A stretch of 64,000 nucleotides of DNA, from assembly GCA_963666485.2 (NCBI GenBank), contig CAXXUO010000004.1, forward strand, positions 224,001 through 288,000, given 5' to 3'. The notes under the pieces were generated by a model. It was given only the letters and a program-made list of their open reading frames with translations. It was not told where the DNA came from and made no database searches. Shown here piece after piece: positions 2,909 to 30,670 of this stretch (the first letter of the stretch is position 1; every line of letters starts with the position of its first letter). Origin of the DNA: Syntrophorhabdaceae bacterium (GTDB lineage: Bacteria > Desulfobacterota > Syntrophorhabdia > Syntrophorhabdales > Syntrophorhabdaceae). Made by a program: the position numbers and the translations under genes.

Positions 2909-5900
2909 TTACTCGCCGTACATTATAAAGGGGGCCCAGAAGAACGGATGGGATGAAGCCTTTATGAACTCTATTTTAGTCCTCCGAAGCGCCGCCTCTT
3001 TCGTCATGCCTTCGTTGATCATGTTCTTATAGAACAGGACCATTAATTCTCTTGTTTTTTCGTCGCTCACGCTCCAGAGACTGACCACTGCCGCCGGGCT
3101 CCCCGCGTACATGACCGCTCGCGTGAGGCCCGTGATCCCCTCGCCGCGATCGGTTTTGCCAAGTCCGGTCTCGCAGGCCGACAATGTGACCAGTTGGGCA
3201 TTGAAACGGCTGTTCATTATTTCGGCCAGAGTGAAGAAGCCGTCCTCTTTACTCCCGGGGATCTGGGAAAGCGCGATCGCCTGAAAATTATCGTCCACGA
3301 TCCCGTGCGTAGAGAAGTGGATAAATCCATAACGTTCTAGACTGCCGGACTTGGCCTCCTCCTCCCTCGCCTGGGCCCTCAGGAAGCTTTTTGCCTGTTT
3401 GGACCGGTCCCTGAAAATATTTTCGATCTCCGAGACCTCCAAACCACTCCCCTCCAGGCGGGACAGGTTTCCACCCGACCGGAGATAGCCGCCCCTGACG
3501 AGCAGGCGGGCCTTATCCCCTTTATCTCCCCTGGTATCCTCAACGCCTTCGGGGAGTCCCTGCCTGAAATTCTTGTAATCATAAACAGGGTCACCGAAAC
3601 CGATGAACCAGTAGTTTGTCCCTTCTTTCTTGTATTGTGTTCTCAGCATGCCCAGCACGGATGCAGACTGGACATATTTCAGAGGATATTTCTCGATGAG
3701 ATACGACCTGCGTTCATTTTCCTTTGCTATCAAAGCCTCAAAAGGGAAAAGCGCAAGCACGCCATCCGGTACAAGTATGGCTTCCCTGCCCTCGAGGAAC
3801 GACTCTACCGGGTGAATGAGCACCTCATACAGCCTTGCCGCATCTTCTGCGGGATACCGCGATCCGAGCATGCCGCCTTCCCTGATCTTGCCAAGAAGAT
3901 CCCTCACCCTTCGTTCAAGGATCGCCTGCGAAACAGGGAGCCGCACAAGTTCATACCCGTCCGTACGCACGACAAAGCAGTATACCCCTTTTCCTGACAG
4001 GAAATACTCGATCAAGACCTCATTCTTCTTCAGGACCTTTTCTTGCAGTGCCTGCAGGGCTACGGGCTGTGGGTATTGAACAGAGGCGTAAAGGGGATTG
4101 CGATAACGTATCTCCCGCCTGATCCCGTCAAGCTCCTCTTCCGCCTTTCCCATCTCTTTTTTTATTGATGCAAGCACAGCCTGTTCAGGGACCGGCTTTT
4201 GCGATTCATTGAGGACCTGGCTGCCGAGAAGCGCGATCTTTTTTTCCAGGGCATCCCTCTTTTCTTTCAGCAAGGGGTCTATCCCTTTCTCGAGATCGAC
4301 CAGACCTTCGGAGAGCCGGTCCAGGAACACCCGTGCCTTCATCGCTTCCACATACGTGAAGGCCTTTTCCTTGTAACCGTTTTCGATCATGAAGACAGCA
4401 GCATCGTTATAAAGATCATAGACCTTTGCCATGTAGCTCTTCTTCAACTCGGAAAAACCGGTCTGCCTCCTGACCCTCTCCAACCGGGCAAGCCCTTCTT
4501 CGTATAACGTGAGGGCAATGTCTTTGTCCCCCCTGTCTGCGTGGAGCCCTGCGATCTTGAACGACACGAACGCCTCGGATTCTATGTCTCCCAGCTTCCT
4601 GTAATGGTCAAGCGAGGTCGTGAAACTCTCCATCGCCTTGTCCGGCTCCTTGAGATAAAGATGGGAATCGCCGATGCTCTGATACACGTTGCCCATCCCG
4701 ATAGAAGACCGTGCCGTCGAATAATACGGGAGCGACCTCGTGTACATGGCCAGTGCCTTCTCGGGATGACCGGCCATCAGGTAGTCGTCCCCGAGGCTGC
4801 GGTAGGAATCCCCCAGCCCGATCGCGGAGTTACCTTTTTCGAAGAGCGGTATGGCCTTTTCCTGCATCATGATCGACTTCGCAAAATCCCTTTTTGCGAA
4901 ATAAACGTCCCCGATACTGCGGTAGGCGTTGCCCTGCCCTATAGGGGAATGTGCCTTCTCGTAAAAATCAGCGGCGCGCCCGTACATCTCCAGTGCCTTT
5001 TCATTGTCCCCGGTGAAGAAATAGATGTCCCCCATGCTCCGGTATATGTTGCCCTGCCCGACAGGCTCCCTGGCCTTCAGGTAGGACGGGAGCCCCTTGT
5101 CGTACATCTCCATGGCCCTGACGAAATCCCGGGTGTAGAAGTAAAGGTCCCCGATCCCCTTGTAGACGTCTGCCTGGCCGAGAACGTCCTCGGCCTTCAG
5201 GTAGCCGGCAAGGGCAATGTTGTACTGTTCAAGAGCATCTTTGCTGTCTCCTGTCCTCATGGCTATCAGCCCCAGGATCCGGTGGGCGTAACCCTGGCTG
5301 GCAGGGTCGCCTGCGCGCCGGAAGAACGAAACGGCTTTATGGAGCAGGTCACGCGCCCTGCTGTTATCGCCGCGGTAGAAATATACGGCGCCCATGCTCT
5401 GACAGACATTCCCCTGCCCGACAAGGTTTTCCTTTCCCCGGTACACCGCGAGGGCCTTTTCGTACATCTTCATAGCCTCGGGTATATTGCCAACCTTGAG
5501 GTAGATCTGTCCCATACCGTATGACACGTTGGCGTCACCAATGATGTCTCCAAGCCGCAGGTAGATCGACTGCGCCTTCCGGTACATTGTCTCGGCCTTC
5601 TGGTATTCACGGAGCTTCAAATACAGTTCGCCCATCCCGAGGTACGTGTCGGCCCTGCCCACGGCGGAACGGGCTTTTTTATAATATGCGAGCGCCCTGC
5701 CGAACTGCTGCCACGCCGGTGCATAGTCGCACGTCCGGGAGTTGATTCCGGCAAGGCCCCTGAGGGCATCGCCCTTGCCGGAGGCATCTCCCGCCTTTTC
5801 AAAAAACTGAAATGCCTTCTCGTAGGACGCTTTTGCTTCTTTATTGTCCCCGGCCCGGAACCGGATACCGCCCGTATTGAGGAAGGCATGTCCCTGGCCG

Positions 5901-6013
5901 GAAAGTTCCCGGGACGCCTCGGGCCGGGCCGGGCTTACGGTGCCCAGCAGGGAAAAGGTGAGGCCGAGTGCAACGAGAAAAATGACCGCCAGGCGGTGCA
6001 TCAACTTTTTCAC
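2909..6013 (-). CDS. Exported TPR-repeat + CHAT (caspase-like, clan CD) domain protein
   Basis: N-terminal hydrophobic signal (KKLMHRLAVIFLVALGLTFSLLG), about 12 repeats of 40 aa (GQGNxYxSxGDxY), CHAT dyad motifs HFSTHG and LSACETG, end motif HPFFWAPF; start probably GTG 6013 (track start 6064). Confidence 0.92.
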   Translation of the reverse strand: MKKLMHRLAVIFLVALGLTFSLLGTVSPARPEASRELSGQGHAFLNTGGIRFRAGDNKEAKASYEKAFQFFEKAGDASGKGDALRGLAGINSRTCDYAPAWQQFGRALAYYKKARSAVGRADTYLGMGELYLKLREYQKAETMYRKAQSIYLRLGDIIGDANVSYGMGQIYLKVGNIPEAMKMYEKALAVYRGKENLVGQGNVCQSMGAVYFYRGDNSRARDLLHKAVSFFRRAGDPASQGYAHRILGLIAMRTGDSKDALEQYNIALAGYLKAEDVLGQADVYKGIGDLYFYTRDFVRAMEMYDKGLPSYLKAREPVGQGNIYRSMGDIYFFTGDNEKALEMYGRAADFYEKAHSPIGQGNAYRSIGDVYFAKRDFAKSIMMQEKAIPLFEKGNSAIGLGDSYRSLGDDYLMAGHPEKALAMYTRSLPYYSTARSSIGMGNVYQSIGDSHLYLKEPDKAMESFTTSLDHYRKLGDIESEAFVSFKIAGLHADRGDKDIALTLYEEGLARLERVRRQTGFSELKKSYMAKVYDLYNDAAVFMIENGYKEKAFTYVEAMKARVFLDRLSEGLVDLEKGIDPLLKEKRDALEKKIALLGSQVLNESQKPVPEQAVLASIKKEMGKAEEELDGIRREIRYRNPLYASVQYPQPVALQALQEKVLKKNEVLIEYFLSGKGVYCFVVRTDGYELVRLPVSQAILERRVRDLLGKIREGGMLGSRYPAEDAARLYEVLIHPVESFLEGREAILVPDGVLALFPFEALIAKENERRSYLIEKYPLKYVQSASVLGMLRTQYKKEGTNYWFIGFGDPVYDYKNFRQGLPEGVEDTRGDKGDKARLLVRGGYLRSGGNLSRLEGSGLEVSEIENIFRDRSKQAKSFLRAQAREEEAKSGSLERYGFIHFSTHGIVDDNFQAIALSQIPGSKEDGFFTLAEIMNSRFNAQLVTLSACETGLGKTDRGEGITGLTRAVMYAGSPAAVVSLWSVSDEKTRELMVLFYKNMINEGMTKEAALRRTKIEFIKASSHPFFWAPFIMYGE

Positions 6014-6053
6014 TGTTCCTGTCTTGCCTTTCATTGACATTGAATGAAAATAT

Positions 6054-6083
6054 AAGGGGTACATGAGTGATCATGTACCCCTT
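6054..6083 (-). terminator. Perfect 13-bp hairpin between the peptide gene and the TPR-CHAT gene
   Basis: AAGGGGTACATGA-N4-TCATGTACCCCTT, followed on the minus strand by ATATTTTC. Confidence 0.6.
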
Positions 6084-6124
6084 GATATCTGCCTGATTTC
6101 CTATGTAGCCATCAGGTCATGCGT

Positions 6125-6256
6125 TCATCTTTCGCCAGTCGGGACCGAAGTGGTATACAGTTTAGGCGCAGGCGGATCGTCTCCGGCAAGTGCAAGATTT
6201 ATCGTAGAGACAATCAGGATCATGGGAAGCACTAAAAACAATATTACCTTTTTCAT
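6125..6256 (-). CDS. 43-aa secreted peptide precursor (unannotated small ORF)
   Basis: MKKVILFLVLPMILIVSTINLALA|GDDPPAPKLYTTSVPTGER; strong RBS AAAAGGAGG; Sec signal ending in A-L-A; own promoter. Confidence 0.75.
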   Translation of the reverse strand: MKKVILFLVLPMILIVSTINLALAGDDPPAPKLYTTSVPTGER

Positions 6257-6313
6257 TGAGCCCTCCTTTTAACAACAGTCTCATGCATCCACGAAAATTC
6301 CCCAGCCATTTAG

Positions 6314-6342
6314 AGTCTATCAATATACCAGGTCCCTGACAA
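6314..6342 (-). promoter_or_regulatory. sigma70 promoter of the small peptide gene
   Basis: TTGTCA-N17-TAGACT with TGn extended -10. Confidence 0.6.
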
Positions 6343-6403
6343 GGACATTTTTTTAACCGGCCTGCTGCCATAAACCGGTCGGGTCTGAGCTAACCCTCGC
6401 GGA

Positions 6404-6856
6404 TCATTTTTCCTCTTTTCCCGGGCAGATCTTCTGAAACAAATGATCCGCCATGCTCCCGGGCAGGACCCTGATCCATTTTTTGTTACTCATTTTTTGA
6501 TGATATATCACTTTTCCGTCACCCGAATGGTCTGCTACTTCCAGGAGGGCGTGTTCTCTTGTCCTGCAATTTATTTCTTCATGATAAAAAGCATAGGAGA
6601 GGTTCTCATAACCCTGTATGTCAGGATTTCGTTTCTTCAGCCTGTCGATGAAAACTTTTCGCCCCTGTTCGTTATAGACCGTCTTTGTATTCACTCTTAC
6701 GGTGTTGTCCGGGATGGCCGTTATGCTCTCCCTGTCATAATACGTTGTTGTGCCGCCATCTTTTGTCTGCGCGACCATCACCCAATCCGCCGGGAAAACA
6801 ACGGCAGGCACCGCCAGAAAAGCTATTATTGCGAGAAACAACATTTTCAATTTCAT
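6404..6856 (-). CDS. Exported surface-adhesin-E-like protein
   Basis: Signal peptide, ADWV..YYDRESI, EINC..., W..V.PGS....L...IC pattern; start probably ATG 6856. Confidence 0.65.
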   Translation of the reverse strand: MKLKMLFLAIIAFLAVPAVVFPADWVMVAQTKDGGTTTYYDRESITAIPDNTVRVNTKTVYNEQGRKVFIDRLKKRNPDIQGYENLSYAFYHEEINCRTREHALLEVADHSGDGKVIYHQKMSNKKWIRVLPGSMADHLFQKICPGKEEK

Positions 6857-7097
6857 TACCCCCGCCTGTTTCAAACAGATTTTCTTCCTTGTTACCACAT
6901 TTTCATCGATAAGAACACGCTAATTTACCGGCGTCGAACTCATGATCCGCATATTCCGCATATTCGCCGATTCCATGGCGGCAAAAAATGAGGTGGGAAC
7001 AATTCGGCCGTTGTGGTACGGTTAGAATACATAGACTGAATGGAAAAGGGAGATGCAAGGGTTCAGGCGCTTCTGAAATAATTTAGAGGGGGATGCT

Positions 7098-7539
7098 TTG
7101 AATGGATGCCTTTTCTCCGCAGGGGCATTAAGGGATGAAGCATTTATGTACGGGCATGGGGGCGCGTTCCTGCGGCAACCGAGTGCCGAAGACCCGGGAG
7201 ACGAAACACGGGATGCAATTCCTGATAATCCCGAAAAAAGGAGAAATACGCTCCTTTTCATATCGCATATCATTGCAATAGCAATCTATGGATTCATCAT
7301 ATTCCTGACAGTGTCCCCCCCTTCACTACGAACCGGGCTCTCCGGCATACCTGGCGCACGGGGTAACGCTGACGCTATCGGTATACCTCTCATTGTTCGG
7401 GTTCATTATCGCGGTCCATATAATCATAAATGCAATCCGGCGGATCGAGATGTCGAGAATACCGCATAATTCGTCTCTGCTGACCCTTGTGTTCATGGTA
7501 ATACTGATCATTGGCAGGATAGCGAGCCTGTTCTATTAA
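7098..7539 (+). pseudogene. Small multi-TM membrane protein frameshifted at a C7 run
   Basis: First frame encodes TM LLFISHIIAIAIYGFIIFLTVSP; removing one C from 7315-7321 continues into LHYEPG...VTLTLSVYLSLFGFIIAVHIII...LLTLVFMVILIIGRIASLFY-stop at 7539. Confidence 0.55.
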
Positions 7540-26115: not shown

Positions 26116-26841
26116 TCACACATCGAGAAGATGCCCTTTTGACCTGAGCCATGCCTTGCTGTCCCTGTAAGACGGCAGCCTCGCTTCCACGTAATCCCAG
26201 AATTTCCTCGAATGGTTCTTTATCTTTACGTGCGCAAGCTCATGGACAATGATGTAATCTATGATCCGATAGGGCGCCATCACGAGCCTGTAGCTGAAGG
26301 AAAGCCTGTTGTCGGATGAACATGAGCCATACCGCGTCCGGGCGCTTGTCACGCGTATGCCGTTAAAGGCGAGCCCCATGTCCCTCGCATAAAAAGCGAC
26401 GCGTTCCGCAAAGATCTCACGCGCGCGCCTCTTGTACCACTCGACAAATATCTGCCTCACATCGGTGTTGTGGTCCCTGCGAAGAATGAACGCGCCATGG
26501 GAAAGGGCCAGCCGGGTCACGCGGTCCGGGGTTACTTGGAGCGGGTATTCCTCGCCGAGGTACAGGAATTTTTCCCCGGGTGCAAAACTCCTCGGCTCGT
26601 TCACATTCCTTCCCGACTCCCGGTATTCAATCAATTTTTTGTGGATCCACGGGACCTTGGAATTGAAAAACCGGTGGATCTCGTCCTTCGGGGTCCTGTC
26701 GGGGACCAAAATGACGACCGCCCCGCTGCGCTCCAGTTTCAGGGTCATCGTCCGTTTACGGTTCTTGCTGCGAACGACCCTGTAATTCAAGAATTCTGTA
26801 TCGCTAAAGAGAGAAGCCTGTTCCTCCACTTTCCCTCTCAT
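26116..26841 (-). CDS. YgjP/DUF45 (M48-like) zinc metallohydrolase
   Basis: RYGSCS, IDYIIVHELAH...NHSRKFW. Confidence 0.9.
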   Translation of the reverse strand: MRGKVEEQASLFSDTEFLNYRVVRSKNRKRTMTLKLERSGAVVILVPDRTPKDEIHRFFNSKVPWIHKKLIEYRESGRNVNEPRSFAPGEKFLYLGEEYPLQVTPDRVTRLALSHGAFILRRDHNTDVRQIFVEWYKRRAREIFAERVAFYARDMGLAFNGIRVTSARTRYGSCSSDNRLSFSYRLVMAPYRIIDYIIVHELAHVKIKNHSRKFWDYVEARLPSYRDSKAWLRSKGHLLDV

Positions 26842-26861
26842 ATCCTTCCTGCCTTGAGTCG

Positions 26862-28250
26862 CTAGATCTCCAGTTCTTCGCCAAGATGGGGGACATACGT
26901 CGTCAGCCCCAGCCTTTCCCGGACGATCTGCTCAAATTCCAGGGCGACCGCTTCTTCACCGTGTACGATGTATACCTTCGGATTCGTTGTGAAGGTGCTC
27001 AACCATTCCAGCAGTTCACCCTGGTCCGCGTGGGCAGAGAATCCGCCGATCGTATGGACTTTCGCCCGTATCGCCATTTCCTCACCGAGAATATATGCCC
27101 TTTTCGACCCGTCGACAATGAGCCGGCCGAGCGTCCCGGGAACCTGGAAGCCGGTGAAGATGATGCTGCATTCCGGCCGCCAGATATTGTGCTTGAAATG
27201 GTGCCGTATCCTGCCGCCCTCGCACATTCCGCTGCCTGCAATGATAATGGCGCCTGACTTTATCTTGTTTATCTTCTGTGATTCCTCGATCGTGGTAGTA
27301 AAATGTATCTTCATCCCTTCCGCGCTCCTGAACTTGAACGCGTTGACAGCTTCGCCGTCGAAAAATTCCGGGTGCGACATATATATCTTCGTTGCCTTGT
27401 CGGCGAGCGGGCTGTCGATGTAGACGTCGAGGTCCTTGAGCCGGCCTTCCTTCACGAGCCTGTTCAGGATATACAGGACATCCTGTGTCCTCCCGACGGC
27501 AAAAGACGGCATCAACACGTTTCCCCCGTGCTTGAACGTGTCCTTGATCACCTGCGCCATTTCTTCGATGCTTGCCTCGAGGTCCTTGTGGAAACGGTTG
27601 CCGTACGTGGATTCGACCACGACATAATCGGCCTCGGTGACGTGCTGCGGGTCCCGGATGATCGGGTTGCCGTTCTTCCCTATGTCCCCGGAAAAAACGA
27701 TCTTCTTCTCTTTTCCCTTGTCCTTAAACCACAGCTCCAGGGTCGCCGAGCCCAGGATGTGGCCCGCATCGATGAGGCGGAATTTAACGCCGCCCGGCAA
27801 TTCATGGACGGTGTCATAACCGTTGTGCTCAAAGTACGGAAGGCACGCCTTTACGTCGTCGGTCGTGTAGAGCGGTTCGAAGGTCTCGGTTTTTCCCGCC
27901 CTCAACGCCTTTTTCGTGTGCCATTCGGCATCTTTTTCCTGTATATGGGCCGAATCGAGAAGGATGATCTCGGCGAGCTCGGCCGTTGCGGACGTCGTTA
28001 TTATCTTGCCCTTGAACCCTTCGGACACGAGCCGGGGGATAAGCCCGGAGTGATCGAGATGGGCGTGCGTAAGGAGCATAGTCTCCAGTTTGGCAGGCTC
28101 GAAACGGAACGGCTGCTCGTTCAGGACATCCGAGTGCCTTCCCTGGTTCATACCGCAGTCAACGATCATTTCCGTACCGTCCGTCACCAGTTCAAAACAC
28201 GACCCGGTAACCTTCCTCGCCGCTCCCAAGAACCTGATCTTCATTGTCAC
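26862..28250 (-). CDS. Metallo-beta-lactamase / beta-CASP RNA-processing nuclease
   Basis: VTGSC, LTHAHLDHSG, AGHILGS, ESTYG, FSAHAD, VHGE. Confidence 0.93.
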   Translation of the reverse strand: MTMKIRFLGAARKVTGSCFELVTDGTEMIVDCGMNQGRHSDVLNEQPFRFEPAKLETMLLTHAHLDHSGLIPRLVSEGFKGKIITTSATAELAEIILLDSAHIQEKDAEWHTKKALRAGKTETFEPLYTTDDVKACLPYFEHNGYDTVHELPGGVKFRLIDAGHILGSATLELWFKDKGKEKKIVFSGDIGKNGNPIIRDPQHVTEADYVVVESTYGNRFHKDLEASIEEMAQVIKDTFKHGGNVLMPSFAVGRTQDVLYILNRLVKEGRLKDLDVYIDSPLADKATKIYMSHPEFFDGEAVNAFKFRSAEGMKIHFTTTIEESQKINKIKSGAIIIAGSGMCEGGRIRHHFKHNIWRPECSIIFTGFQVPGTLGRLIVDGSKRAYILGEEMAIRAKVHTIGGFSAHADQGELLEWLSTFTTNPKVYIVHGEEAVALEFEQIVRERLGLTTYVPHLGEELEI

Positions 28251-28296
28251 CCCGTTCTGATGAGTAGTCTGTCATTTAAAGGCTGAAAGTCATTTG

Positions 28297-28325
28297 ATTA
28301 TACACAGGCGACCAATTCTTTACAA
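28297..28325 (-). promoter_or_regulatory. sigma70 promoter of the beta-CASP gene
   Basis: TTGTAA-N17-TATAAT. Confidence 0.6.
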
Positions 28326-28450
28326 GAATATAGAAGATCGGTACTGACCGCCGCACTATCCTCTTTTTTCCGTTCGTCGTCAGCCCTTAGCGGTTATATG
28401 CAAAATAAACGACTACCATGTCGTGAACGATCTGCGCCAGTTACCAATAT

Positions 28451-28572
28451 CGTCATTCCGGTGCTTGACACCGGGGCCCAAGGTTTTGTTTTTACTCGGT
28501 TTTCCCGTATTAAGAGCAACATGAACAACATGGAAAAAACCTTGGATTCCGGTGTCGAGCACCGGAATGACG
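28451..28572. repeat. CGTC-tagged REP doublet (REPIN-like)
   Basis: CGTCATTCCGGTG-CTTGA-CACCGGGGCCCA and inverted TGGATTCCGGTG-TCGAG-CACCGGAATGACG. Confidence 0.85.
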
Positions 28573-28630
28573 GCGGGGGGAAGGATGGAAAGTTGTTAAG
28601 GTACCTGGCCGCGGGATGACGGCGTATCAA

Positions 28631-28680
28631 CCGTTCGCCGTTCGCCGTTCGCCGTTCCTTTCGCCTTTCGCCGTTCGCCT
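28631..28680. repeat. Heptamer tandem array (GTTCGCC/TTTCGCC)
   Basis: About 7 units ending just before the -35 box at 28687. Confidence 0.9.
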
Positions 28681-28686
28681 AACATC

Positions 28687-28715
28687 TTGCTTTTTTCCCA
28701 AAATCCCGTTATATT
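28687..28715 (+). promoter_or_regulatory. sigma70 promoter upstream of the riboswitch
   Basis: TTGCTT-N17-TATATT. Confidence 0.6.
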
Positions 28716-28726
28716 TTGGCTGTTGT

Positions 28727-28817
28727 TTGAAGGGGAGTAGCTAACTTCAGGCAGGATCAACATACTGGGGAGACCCTGGTCCTGCCGTTGGTAAAAGCCA
28801 ATAAGCGAGACCTTCAG
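28727..28817 (+). promoter_or_regulatory. yybP-ykoY manganese riboswitch
   Basis: Signature AAGGGGAGTAGC ... GCGAGACCTT, GGCAGGAT/GTCCTGCC helix with CAACATA loop, upstream of a UPF0016 gene. Confidence 0.93.
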
Positions 28818-28844
28818 CGGATCATCCGCTGAAGGTCTTTTTTT
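28808..28844 (+). terminator. Riboswitch-controlled intrinsic terminator
   Basis: AGACCTTCAGCGGA-TCA-TCCGCTGAAGGTCT then a T run; the 5' arm overlaps the aptamer P1 3' strand. Confidence 0.9.
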
Positions 28845-28857
28845 TAGGAGGAAATGC

Positions 28858-29550
28858 ATGGACGCCTACCTGGCATCGGTTATTTTCGTCGTTCTCGCTG
28901 AAATGGGTGACAAGACCCAGCTTCTCGCCATGGCCTTCGCATCGCGGTTCCGGTGGCAGACGGTGCTTGCCGGCGTTTTTGTGGCGACGCTCGTGAATCA
29001 CTTCATGGCCGTCGTCGCAGGAAACTATATGACGCGGATCATTCCCCTGCAGTACATCCAGATAGCGGCCGCCGCGTCCTTCATACTGTTCGGGCTCTGG
29101 ACGATCCGCGGAGATACGCTGGAAGGTGAGGACAAACGCTTCAATTTCAGCCCGTTCTGGACGGTCGCCGTCGCATTCTTCATTGCAGAGATGGGGGACA
29201 AGACCCAGCTGGCAACCGTTGCCCTGGCAACCAAGTACAACAGCATCATTGTCGTGTGGCTCGGGACTACCACCGCGATGGTTATTGCCGACGCATTGGG
29301 AATCATCATCGGCATCGTCCTCGGGAAAAAGATACCGGAGCGGGCCGTCAAATGGTTTGCAGCGATCGTTTTCATACTGTTCGGGGTGATCGGGCTCAAG
29401 GAATACCTGCCCCCGAAACACCTCACGGTGCCCGTGATGGCTGCAGGCATCGCCTTTATCATCCTCCTCATGTTCCTCGTTGCGAAGATGACCGATTCCA
29501 AAAAGAAGAGGCTGGCCGAAGAGGCGGTCCCGGTCGACCCGGACGAATGA
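28858..29550 (+). CDS. TMEM165/GDT1 (UPF0016) Mn2+/Ca2+ exporter
   Basis: Two EMGDKTQL motifs, multi-TM, Mn riboswitch upstream. Confidence 0.95.
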   Translation: MDAYLASVIFVVLAEMGDKTQLLAMAFASRFRWQTVLAGVFVATLVNHFMAVVAGNYMTRIIPLQYIQIAAAASFILFGLWTIRGDTLEGEDKRFNFSPFWTVAVAFFIAEMGDKTQLATVALATKYNSIIVVWLGTTTAMVIADALGIIIGIVLGKKIPERAVKWFAAIVFILFGVIGLKEYLPPKHLTVPVMAAGIAFIILLMFLVAKMTDSKKKRLAEEAVPVDPDE

Positions 29551-29671
29551 CCCGGTGACGGGAAGCGAAATTCTTGATGAAATGGCGTGGATAACGCTTT
29601 TTTGACTCGATAAAAGAGTGTATGGTATCCTTATTGTCACTGTTTTTTAACTACATGGGGGTAGGTGAAAA

Positions 29672-30670
29672 ATGAACACACGATGGAAAAGGATATTCGG
29701 GGTCGTGGTCCTTGGTATCGCCGTTTTTTTCCTTTCATGCATAATCCTTGAAACAGCTGCGGATGCACGGGCGGGGGGCGGCAGATCGTCGGGGAGCAGG
29801 GGCATCAGTTCCGGCAGCAGGAGTTCGGGTTCTACGTATAACAGTTCAACCCCGTACCGGAGCACGAATCCGCAGCAGCCGATGCCGCCGCAGCAAACCA
29901 CCAGCCCGGGAAGGAGTTTCCTCTACGGTCTGGGAGGCGGACTTGCGGGCAGCATGATCGGCAGTCTGCTTTTCGGGCGCTCCGGCTATGGAATGGGCGG
30001 CGGAATGGGGGGCGGCGGATTCGGTTTCGGCGATATCCTCATCCTCCTGATCATCGCGGGGGTCCTCTTCTGGGTCTACAGGCGGTACAAGGCACGCAAG
30101 CAGATGGAAATGAGCACGTCGTCCGCAACCGGATACAATTCGTATGCGTACAACGAGCAACAGCCGGCGTACGATTACGGGAACCCGGCGTACAACACCC
30201 AGCCGTCAGGCGATCCTGTCGGGGACGGCCTGCGCCATATCGGGGAAATGGACCCGACCTTCAACGCAGATGCATTCTGTGAAAAGGCCGAGGACCTCTT
30301 CTTCAAGATCCAGGGAGGATGGACGCGGCGCGACCTGACGGCTATATCCGATCTCCTGACGACTCAGATGCGCGAGACATTCCAGGGGGACATCAACCGG
30401 TATATAGCGGATAAGAAGATAAACCGCCTGGAAAATATCGCCGTACGGAACGTCGAGATCGTGGATGCCGTTCAGGACCGGGGAGAAGAGTACATCACGG
30501 TCCGCTACACGGCCAGCCTTCTCGATTTTACCACGGATGAATCGGGGAGCGTACTCTCCGGAAGTTCGACCGATCCCGTGAAGTTTCTCGAATACTGGAC
30601 ATATACCCGCAGGGTCGGCGAACGCACCTGGAGGCTCTCGGGCATCACCCAGGAACAGGATTACAGATAA
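29672..30670 (+). CDS. Tim44-like domain protein
   Basis: ARAGGGRSSGSRG leader, Gly-rich TM region, C-terminal KFLEYWTYTR...W.LSGI.Q. Confidence 0.88.
   Translation: MNTRWKRIFGVVVLGIAVFFLSCIILETAADARAGGGRSSGSRGISSGSRSSGSTYNSSTPYRSTNPQQPMPPQQTTSPGRSFLYGLGGGLAGSMIGSLLFGRSGYGMGGGMGGGGFGFGDILILLIIAGVLFWVYRRYKARKQMEMSTSSATGYNSYAYNEQQPAYDYGNPAYNTQPSGDPVGDGLRHIGEMDPTFNADAFCEKAEDLFFKIQGGWTRRDLTAISDLLTTQMRETFQGDINRYIADKKINRLENIAVRNVEIVDAVQDRGEEYITVRYTASLLDFTTDESGSVLSGSSTDPVKFLEYWTYTRRVGERTWRLSGITQEQDYR

Follow-up and report, generated by a model that had tools for sequence, protein, structure and literature searches.

What triggers a caspase-like protease that works outside the cytoplasm? For extracytoplasmic TPR-CHAT proteases, which join tetratricopeptide repeats (TPR) to a CHAT (caspase/separase-like) domain, this is an open question, and it is raised by a locus of a Syntrophorhabdaceae bacterium in which a 43-codon gene for a predicted secreted peptide lies directly 5' of a gene for such an enzyme. 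The locus lies in a window of 64,000 nucleotides (assembly GCA_963666485.2, contig CAXXUO010000004.1, positions 224,001 to 288,000 of the forward strand); coordinates below are those of the window, and all parts of the locus are on the - strand. Judging from sequence comparisons, the cassette is a real, conserved and apparently undescribed module. The conserved pairing points to an undescribed peptide control of envelope proteolysis.

A peptide gene directly upstream of an exported protease

The initial annotation had listed a promoter, a ribosome-binding site (RBS), a short open reading frame (ORF), a hairpin and a co-oriented large ORF with a signal peptide, about 12 TPRs and an intact CHAT dyad, and we found all of them in place. 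The sigma-70-type promoter-like sequence TTGTCA-N17-TAGACT (6342-6314) matches the consensus at 9 of 12 positions, carries a TG extension and lies 86 nucleotides (nt) upstream of the peptide start; taken alone, such a site is at chance level within the window (4 found against 4.0 expected). It is followed by the RBS (6270-6262), which is read from the sequence and has purine-rich counterparts before most homologous peptide ORFs, and by the peptide gene (6256-6125), for which there are homologues at 93% and 89% identity and family alignments. Its 43 amino acids (aa) comprise a predicted Sec signal (codons 1-24, 6256-6185) and a mature peptide of 19 residues, GDDPPAPKLYTTSVPTGER (6184-6128). A perfect 13-bp stem-loop occupies the interval between the peptide and protease genes (6083-6054), and stems stand at the equivalent position in relatives. 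Folding of the hairpin region exceeds chance within the window (z -4.35, 0 of 200 shuffles) and the U-tract 3' of the stem is weak; the element is probably a leaky terminator or a 3' stabiliser.

The large ORF (6013-2909) encodes a protease of 1034 aa with a predicted signal peptide, 12 TPRs, a helical linker and a CHAT domain. Its start is most likely GTG 6013 or ATG 6001. ATG 6064 is a less likely start: it falls within the hairpin, and a 91%-identical relative (P0005) is annotated from the counterpart of ATG 6001. The TPR array consists of 12 repeats of 40 residues (residues 40-519, 5896-4457), and the CHAT domain (Pfam PF12770, E 4e-58) spans residues 724-1034 (3844-2912) and includes the catalytic His903 (3307-3305) and Cys947 (3175-3173), identified from the dyad columns of the alignment. 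Signal peptides were predicted from a hydrophobicity heuristic and conservation, and by this heuristic an N-terminal hydrophobic signal-like segment is present in the window protease and across its close homologues. Pfam, the dyad residues and the fold matches agree in placing a His-Cys dyad C-terminal to a TPR array, as in the TPR-CHAT proteases of clan CD (separase/craspase type). The AlphaFold2 model of the protease alone is confident (predicted local distance difference test, pLDDT, 89.6; predicted template modelling score, pTM, 0.84), and its closest solved folds in Foldseek are DdvA (top, E 5e-15), separase and Csx29. The best natural PDB sequence matches of the repeats are the TPR domains of LGN/Pins, whose structures were solved with partner peptides bound, and RapF is among the sequence matches (E 3e-20).

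The peptide family and its linkage to one protease branch

By sequence comparison, the 43-codon ORF is one of a family of Asp/Pro-rich exported peptides that has no name so far, encoded directly 5' of one branch of exported TPR-CHAT proteases and usually overlooked by annotation. Mature peptides are about 17-22 aa in most members. Two types occur, type A (39-44 aa) and type B (43-80 aa), both with a DPPDP motif just past the predicted signal cut. The window peptide is a divergent, single-peptide version, with a head like that of a Smithella peptide (L034) and a tail like type A. Pooled dN/dS values, calculated on sets that do not include the window ORF, are 0.16 for type A as a whole (15 ORFs), where the motif has 0.10 and the signal 0.18; in type B (14 ORFs) the motif has 0.04, the signal 0.32 and the long tail 0.79. 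Purifying selection is thus strongest on the mature motif. In three lineages the tandem peptides of a locus resemble each other, which suggests repeated duplication.

The peptide ORF is not the truncated 5' end of a longer gene, a possibility that the initial annotation had named as fatal to its proposal: relatives of 39-80 aa end at their own stop, and profile matches are mostly short proteins. When 1.84 billion representatives were searched with a profile, 39 matched, mostly with lengths of 41-115 aa; about ten of these are further peptide-like proteins that come without genomic context and were left out of our counts. The window peptide belongs to no Pfam or NCBIfam family and had no usable match in the protein atlas, and reciprocal profile searches of 339 and 301 genomes found no new full-length peptides. 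In the bacterium's own genome both profile matches adjoin these proteases. Four other peptide-bearing genomes give matches better than E 1e-11 only for peptides linked to the protease, whose sequences were already in the profile. Searching the 339 genomes also brought up weaker matches, to Lys/Ala-rich proteins of 47-150 aa whose signal peptide is similar and which have no adjoining protease (23 of the 24 loci read). Secreted Lys/Ala/Pro-rich proteins of 47-133 aa whose signal peptide resembles that of the peptides are widespread in Syntrophia (L205-L229, for example L205, L208 and L217). A short Pro-rich lipoprotein-like ORF of the own genome (C2:616860) was dismissed as a candidate since it has no protease linkage.

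Small signal-peptide ORFs comparable to that of the window do adjoin the homologues of the protease. An orthologous protease is present in 17 of 19 same-genus genomes (not found in G001, 66% complete, or in G014, 94%; in G002 the gene is fragmented, possibly an assembly artefact), and in all 17 it has such ORFs directly upstream, two of them in 16 cases. Similar upstream ORFs occur in Smithella, Syntrophaceae, Syntrophales, and unassigned deltaproteobacterial and metagenomic loci. We grouped 119 proteases of at least 900 aa into 91 clusters at 90% identity, 28 of which form one branch. The peptide is found in 24 of these 28, 22 by a strict pattern and two (L017 and L114) by looser inspection; the clusters without it are L043, L118, L157 and L105, of which L105 is a long-branch Bacteroidales sequence and probably mis-assigned. 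Outside the branch the peptide was found in none of 57 clusters (six clusters are cut upstream) with a strict pattern tuned to Asp/Pro-rich peptides, and a looser heuristic also gave no convincing case. The pairing is kept at about 55-58% protease identity despite unrelated gene neighbourhoods.

Within the own genome, a short signal-peptide ORF with an RBS lies just upstream of 11 of 1990 long ORFs, and two of these 11 are the proteases in question. The second of them belongs to another cassette (contig C10, about 26500-30440; L030, L256), with peptides of both types and a longer N-terminal domain on the protease. Six more distant CHAT paralogues in this genome have no such peptide.

The regulatory elements recur by position. 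In each of the 26 loci examined, the best match to the sigma-70 consensus (TTGACA-17-TATxxT-like) lies 61-143 nt ahead of the first peptide. In 21 of them it agrees with the consensus at no fewer than 10 of 12 positions, a count made with no shuffle control; the window site is weaker. An uninterrupted stem lies in the peptide-protease interval in 13 of 22 loci, usually with a U-run, and its sequences are largely unrelated among lineages. The nine loci without a stem are all of the Syntrophorhabdus type (one genus) and have a B peptide with a long tail. As promoter and stem recur in this way, a constitutive short transcript with partial read-through appears likely in most lineages. The positional conservation of promoter and hairpin supports the earlier proposal that the peptide is made in excess; its companion proposal, that the peptide would serve as activator, inhibitor or substrate of the protease, is taken up below. 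Of three runs of one sample, all of them contigs and of unrecorded kind, one covers the region without a difference and may be the source.

How the peptide may act on its protease

From the observed genes and their linkage, the purifying selection, the positional conservation of promoter and hairpin, the fold and the intact dyad, we modestly favour the view that the peptide is a dedicated ligand of the TPR groove that gates its protease. The locus would then be a self-contained two-part cassette, in which transcription from the sigma-70 promoter would yield a short RNA encoding one or two Sec-exported peptides, and the stem-loop would allow a fraction of it to read through into the protease gene, so that peptide would exceed enzyme. 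Both products would be exported to the periplasm. There the mature peptide, with its Asp/Pro-rich head and short beta-strand-like tail, would bind as an extended chain to the TPR groove of the protease encoded with it, and would gate the His/Cys site in the manner of securin on separase. Asp-Pro bonds are poor substrates and disfavour cleavage. An excess of a poorly cleavable Asp-Pro peptide might keep the enzyme off for as long as it is neither lost nor degraded and no foreign peptide displaces it, and the cleavage target would be encoded elsewhere. Expression ratio, export, binding, sign and target are the parts of this model that we infer. As to sign, we tentatively prefer inhibition because an excess of a co-made activator would keep the enzyme permanently on; an activating, quorum-like sign takes up what remains of the probability given to gating.

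The fold speaks for gating, as it matches DdvA, separase and Csx29, all described as allosterically gated in PMC11506125. The middle repeats also vary with the peptides. Residues D282, K285, D289 and Y292-Y293, together with N322, R325 and D329, form a stripe, which would face the groove, that is common to carriers of Asp-Pro peptides, and it differs in L046, L062 and L150, which carry other peptide types. In the peptide-less L118 the generic repeats are near-identical. A prediction of the complex scored 0.02 against a mark of 0.32, with controls unfolded, a partner chain of residues 14-43 (11 signal residues included) and the mature protease minus its first 40 residues. In L043, which nests in the branch at the usual PhzF-flanked locus, the catalytic His is replaced by Gln and an HD-domain gene stands in place of the upstream peptides; its genome, of unstated completeness, gave no full-length peptide match. 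We take this as one case of joint loss of the catalytic His and the peptides. The L043 protein (3689-7126) is still a full-length TPR-CHAT protein and was possibly repurposed as a non-catalytic binder.

Several observations weigh against a gating peptide. The same-genus genomes are non-independent samples, the branch itself has a support of only 86 in the Shimodaira-Hasegawa-like approximate likelihood ratio test (SH-aLRT; quick tree, 51 hand-picked rows), and common ancestry is a confounder when TPR stripe and peptide type are compared. Two members of the branch, L118 and L157, have intact dyads but lack the peptide. Of the 57 clusters outside it, none has such a peptide and most retain the dyad, so a cis-encoded peptide is not needed for the protease to be tolerated. 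The joint loss was seen only once, in L043 with its genome of unstated completeness, and since the stem is missing in nine of 22 loci, an excess achieved by termination is not universal. Finally, no conserved output or substrate gene was found near peptide-bearing loci (33 of 170 neighbour ORFs scanned, all clustered), where the neighbours are unrelated housekeeping genes or nothing conserved.

Three other relations between peptide and protease were weighed against the same data. It is unlikely, in our estimate, that the peptide is a substrate, an excess precursor from which the exported CHAT enzyme, by trimming or ligation, makes a mature signal or product in a minimal extracytoplasmic maturation of a ribosomally synthesised and post-translationally modified peptide (RiPP). 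The locus order does match the typical RiPP layout of small precursor gene, hairpin and enzyme, precursor copies stand in tandem, clan CD enzymes such as legumain are able to ligate peptides, and the joint loss in L043 is also compatible with this view. The best NCBIfam match of the TPR part is moreover a RiPP-associated TPR protein, though far under its cut-off (135.6 against 1125 bits). But the peptides share no common cleavage-like motif, their conserved Asp is followed by Pro, which is unfavourable to cleavage, and many of the mature forms have no Arg. The peptide-bearing loci have no conserved tailoring or other modifying enzymes and no transporter nearby, and L043 retains a full-length protein without dyad or peptide.

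We give still less credit to the idea that the peptide is an independent small secreted protein that shares an operon with the protease, acts on something else and may derive from the Lys/Ala-rich small periplasmic proteins. That unlinked family, with its very similar signal peptide, does exist, and the contact between peptide and protease is itself deduced. Retention of the pair at such protease divergence and across unrelated neighbourhoods argues against independence, as do the joint loss with the catalytic His and the finding of no free-standing copy of the peptide in the own genome or five others. Least probable in our judgement is a role without signalling, in which the peptide, as a constitutive cofactor or as a propeptide acting in trans, would complete, fold or stabilise either the TPR solenoid or the active site during export. 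It would account for co-transcription and predicted co-export, and the DdvA active site is described, in PMC11506125, as incomplete and requiring another element. Yet the protease alone is modelled with confidence, the sister branches have no peptide, and lineage-specific peptide types and their duplication fit recognition better.

Known systems, related loci and what the cassette may mean

In our analysis the cassette fails the defining features of DdvA, craspase, RRNPP systems and RiPP clusters, and in its working it may resemble separase-securin or an exported RRNPP system. Separase and securin are eukaryotic and intracellular; securin is an extended, low-structure partner of about 200 aa that controls separase and is removed by ubiquitination. 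The window protease shares with separase a helical repeat solenoid and a CHAT-type protease, but its putative partner is a much shorter bacterial exported peptide. RRNPP receptors are cytoplasmic, have a DNA-binding or phosphatase output, rely on peptide re-import and occur in Firmicutes. Like Rap-Phr, NprR-NprX and PlcR-PapR, the cassette has a small signal-peptide ORF that adjoins a TPR protein and is co-inherited with it; unlike them, its receptor has its own predicted export signal, a CHAT protease as output and a diderm host, and neither a helix-turn-helix domain nor a Rap phosphatase output on a cytoplasmic receptor was found. Craspase (Csx29 with Cas7-11 and Csx30) has the same TPR-CHAT fold and is allosterically gated with a genetically linked partner, but it is cytoplasmic, RNA-triggered and CRISPR-linked; no Cas7-11, Csx30 or CRISPR array was found among the 10 window proteins and 33 selected neighbours.

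Nearest among known systems is DdvA-DdvS of Myxococcus xanthus. PMC11506125 indicates that periplasmic TPR-CHAT proteins exist and rest inactive, and calls the signal of DdvA elusive. DdvA is, like our protease, an extracytoplasmic enzyme of the separase/craspase type, with its His-Cys dyad in the resting state, but it is a transmembrane anti-sigma factor with a zinc domain (PMC11506125). The cassette has a dedicated peptide gene and neither an anti-sigma domain nor, in peptide-bearing loci, a linked sigma factor: queries for extracytoplasmic function (ECF) sigma and anti-sigma factors matched only five of 156 loci, all of the peptide-less sister group. The initial annotation knew of no described system with this layout, and we found no description of it in the literature covered, from which most subscription journals are absent. 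The dedicated peptide partner is the new part; ligand-gated TPR-CHAT proteases are already known, and an extracytoplasmic location is already on record for DdvA (PMC11506125).

The sister branches keep the dyad, have no peptides and stand beside other partners: 15 loci have a secreted 180-aa protein, and five have an ECF sigma factor with a zinc anti-sigma. The unnamed secreted protein of about 180 aa adjoins peptide-less exported TPR-CHAT genes at L122:4085-4693, L042:4747-5355, L129:5466-6011, L074:7028-7600 and others among the 15. In 10 loci it ends in TPSAVAGVRG, which resembles the conserved strand that stands immediately ahead of the self-cleavage site in FecR domains (the FecR identity of such a motif was checked in the own genome). 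A B12 radical S-adenosylmethionine gene and an epimerase gene come next in several of these loci. In two peptide-bearing lineages (L046:5760-9115 and L062:4691-7270) the downstream genes encode an M48 peptidase as well as secreted proteins bearing G(V/I)RG, a similar motif, and in the own genome an M48 homologue lies upstream of two tandem CHAT genes (C1:851844). At L101:789-2383, L130 and L104 the peptide-less sister protease stands between a gene that we take to be VIT-like and an ECF sigma/zf-HC2 anti-sigma pair, an arrangement resembling a split DdvA. The same VIT-like gene lies near an ECF pair in the own genome with the protease absent (G000:C1, about 1184650-1186480). Of the 19 same-genus genomes, 18 have unlinked homologues of the anti-sigma that stands beside a peptide-less sister protease, and two of these 18 yielded no protease; this anti-sigma is a conceivable target in trans.

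Two further neighbourhoods were noted. Upstream of the cassette, the window encodes an Adhesin_E-family exported protein (6856-6404, - strand), which has three paralogues, one of them encoded directly after another CHAT gene (C9:88500). We do not count this Adhesin_E-like gene as part of the cassette because other protease loci are without it. Elsewhere in the own genome, three tandem secreted FecR-domain proteins have near-identical N-terminal halves and variable, Gly/Thr-rich C-terminal halves (G000:C2, about 482600-487400; L255:1614-6382); they are flanked by a TPR outer-membrane-like protein and an adenylate-cyclase-like gene.

The broadest reading is a new class of peptide signalling in diderms, in which lineage-specific exported peptides would be read in the periplasm by cognate caspase-like TPR-CHAT proteases, as a switch for kin and non-kin or for envelope integrity; we hold this to be possible, on the doubtful side. 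If true, it would show what kind of ligand DdvA and other periplasmic TPR-CHAT proteins have been missing, and each exported TPR-CHAT sub-branch would have its own secreted partner. For the trigger of extracytoplasmic TPR-CHAT proteases the cassette is the simplest test case, consisting of one soluble enzyme and a 19-residue synthetic peptide, and the second, diverged peptide-protease set in the same genome is a built-in specificity control. Should the peptide prove to gate its enzyme, the pair would offer engineering a compact peptide-switchable protease. Syntrophic anaerobes, about whose cell-cell signalling little is known, would then have in their periplasm a bacterial regulator that resembles securin or a pheromone.

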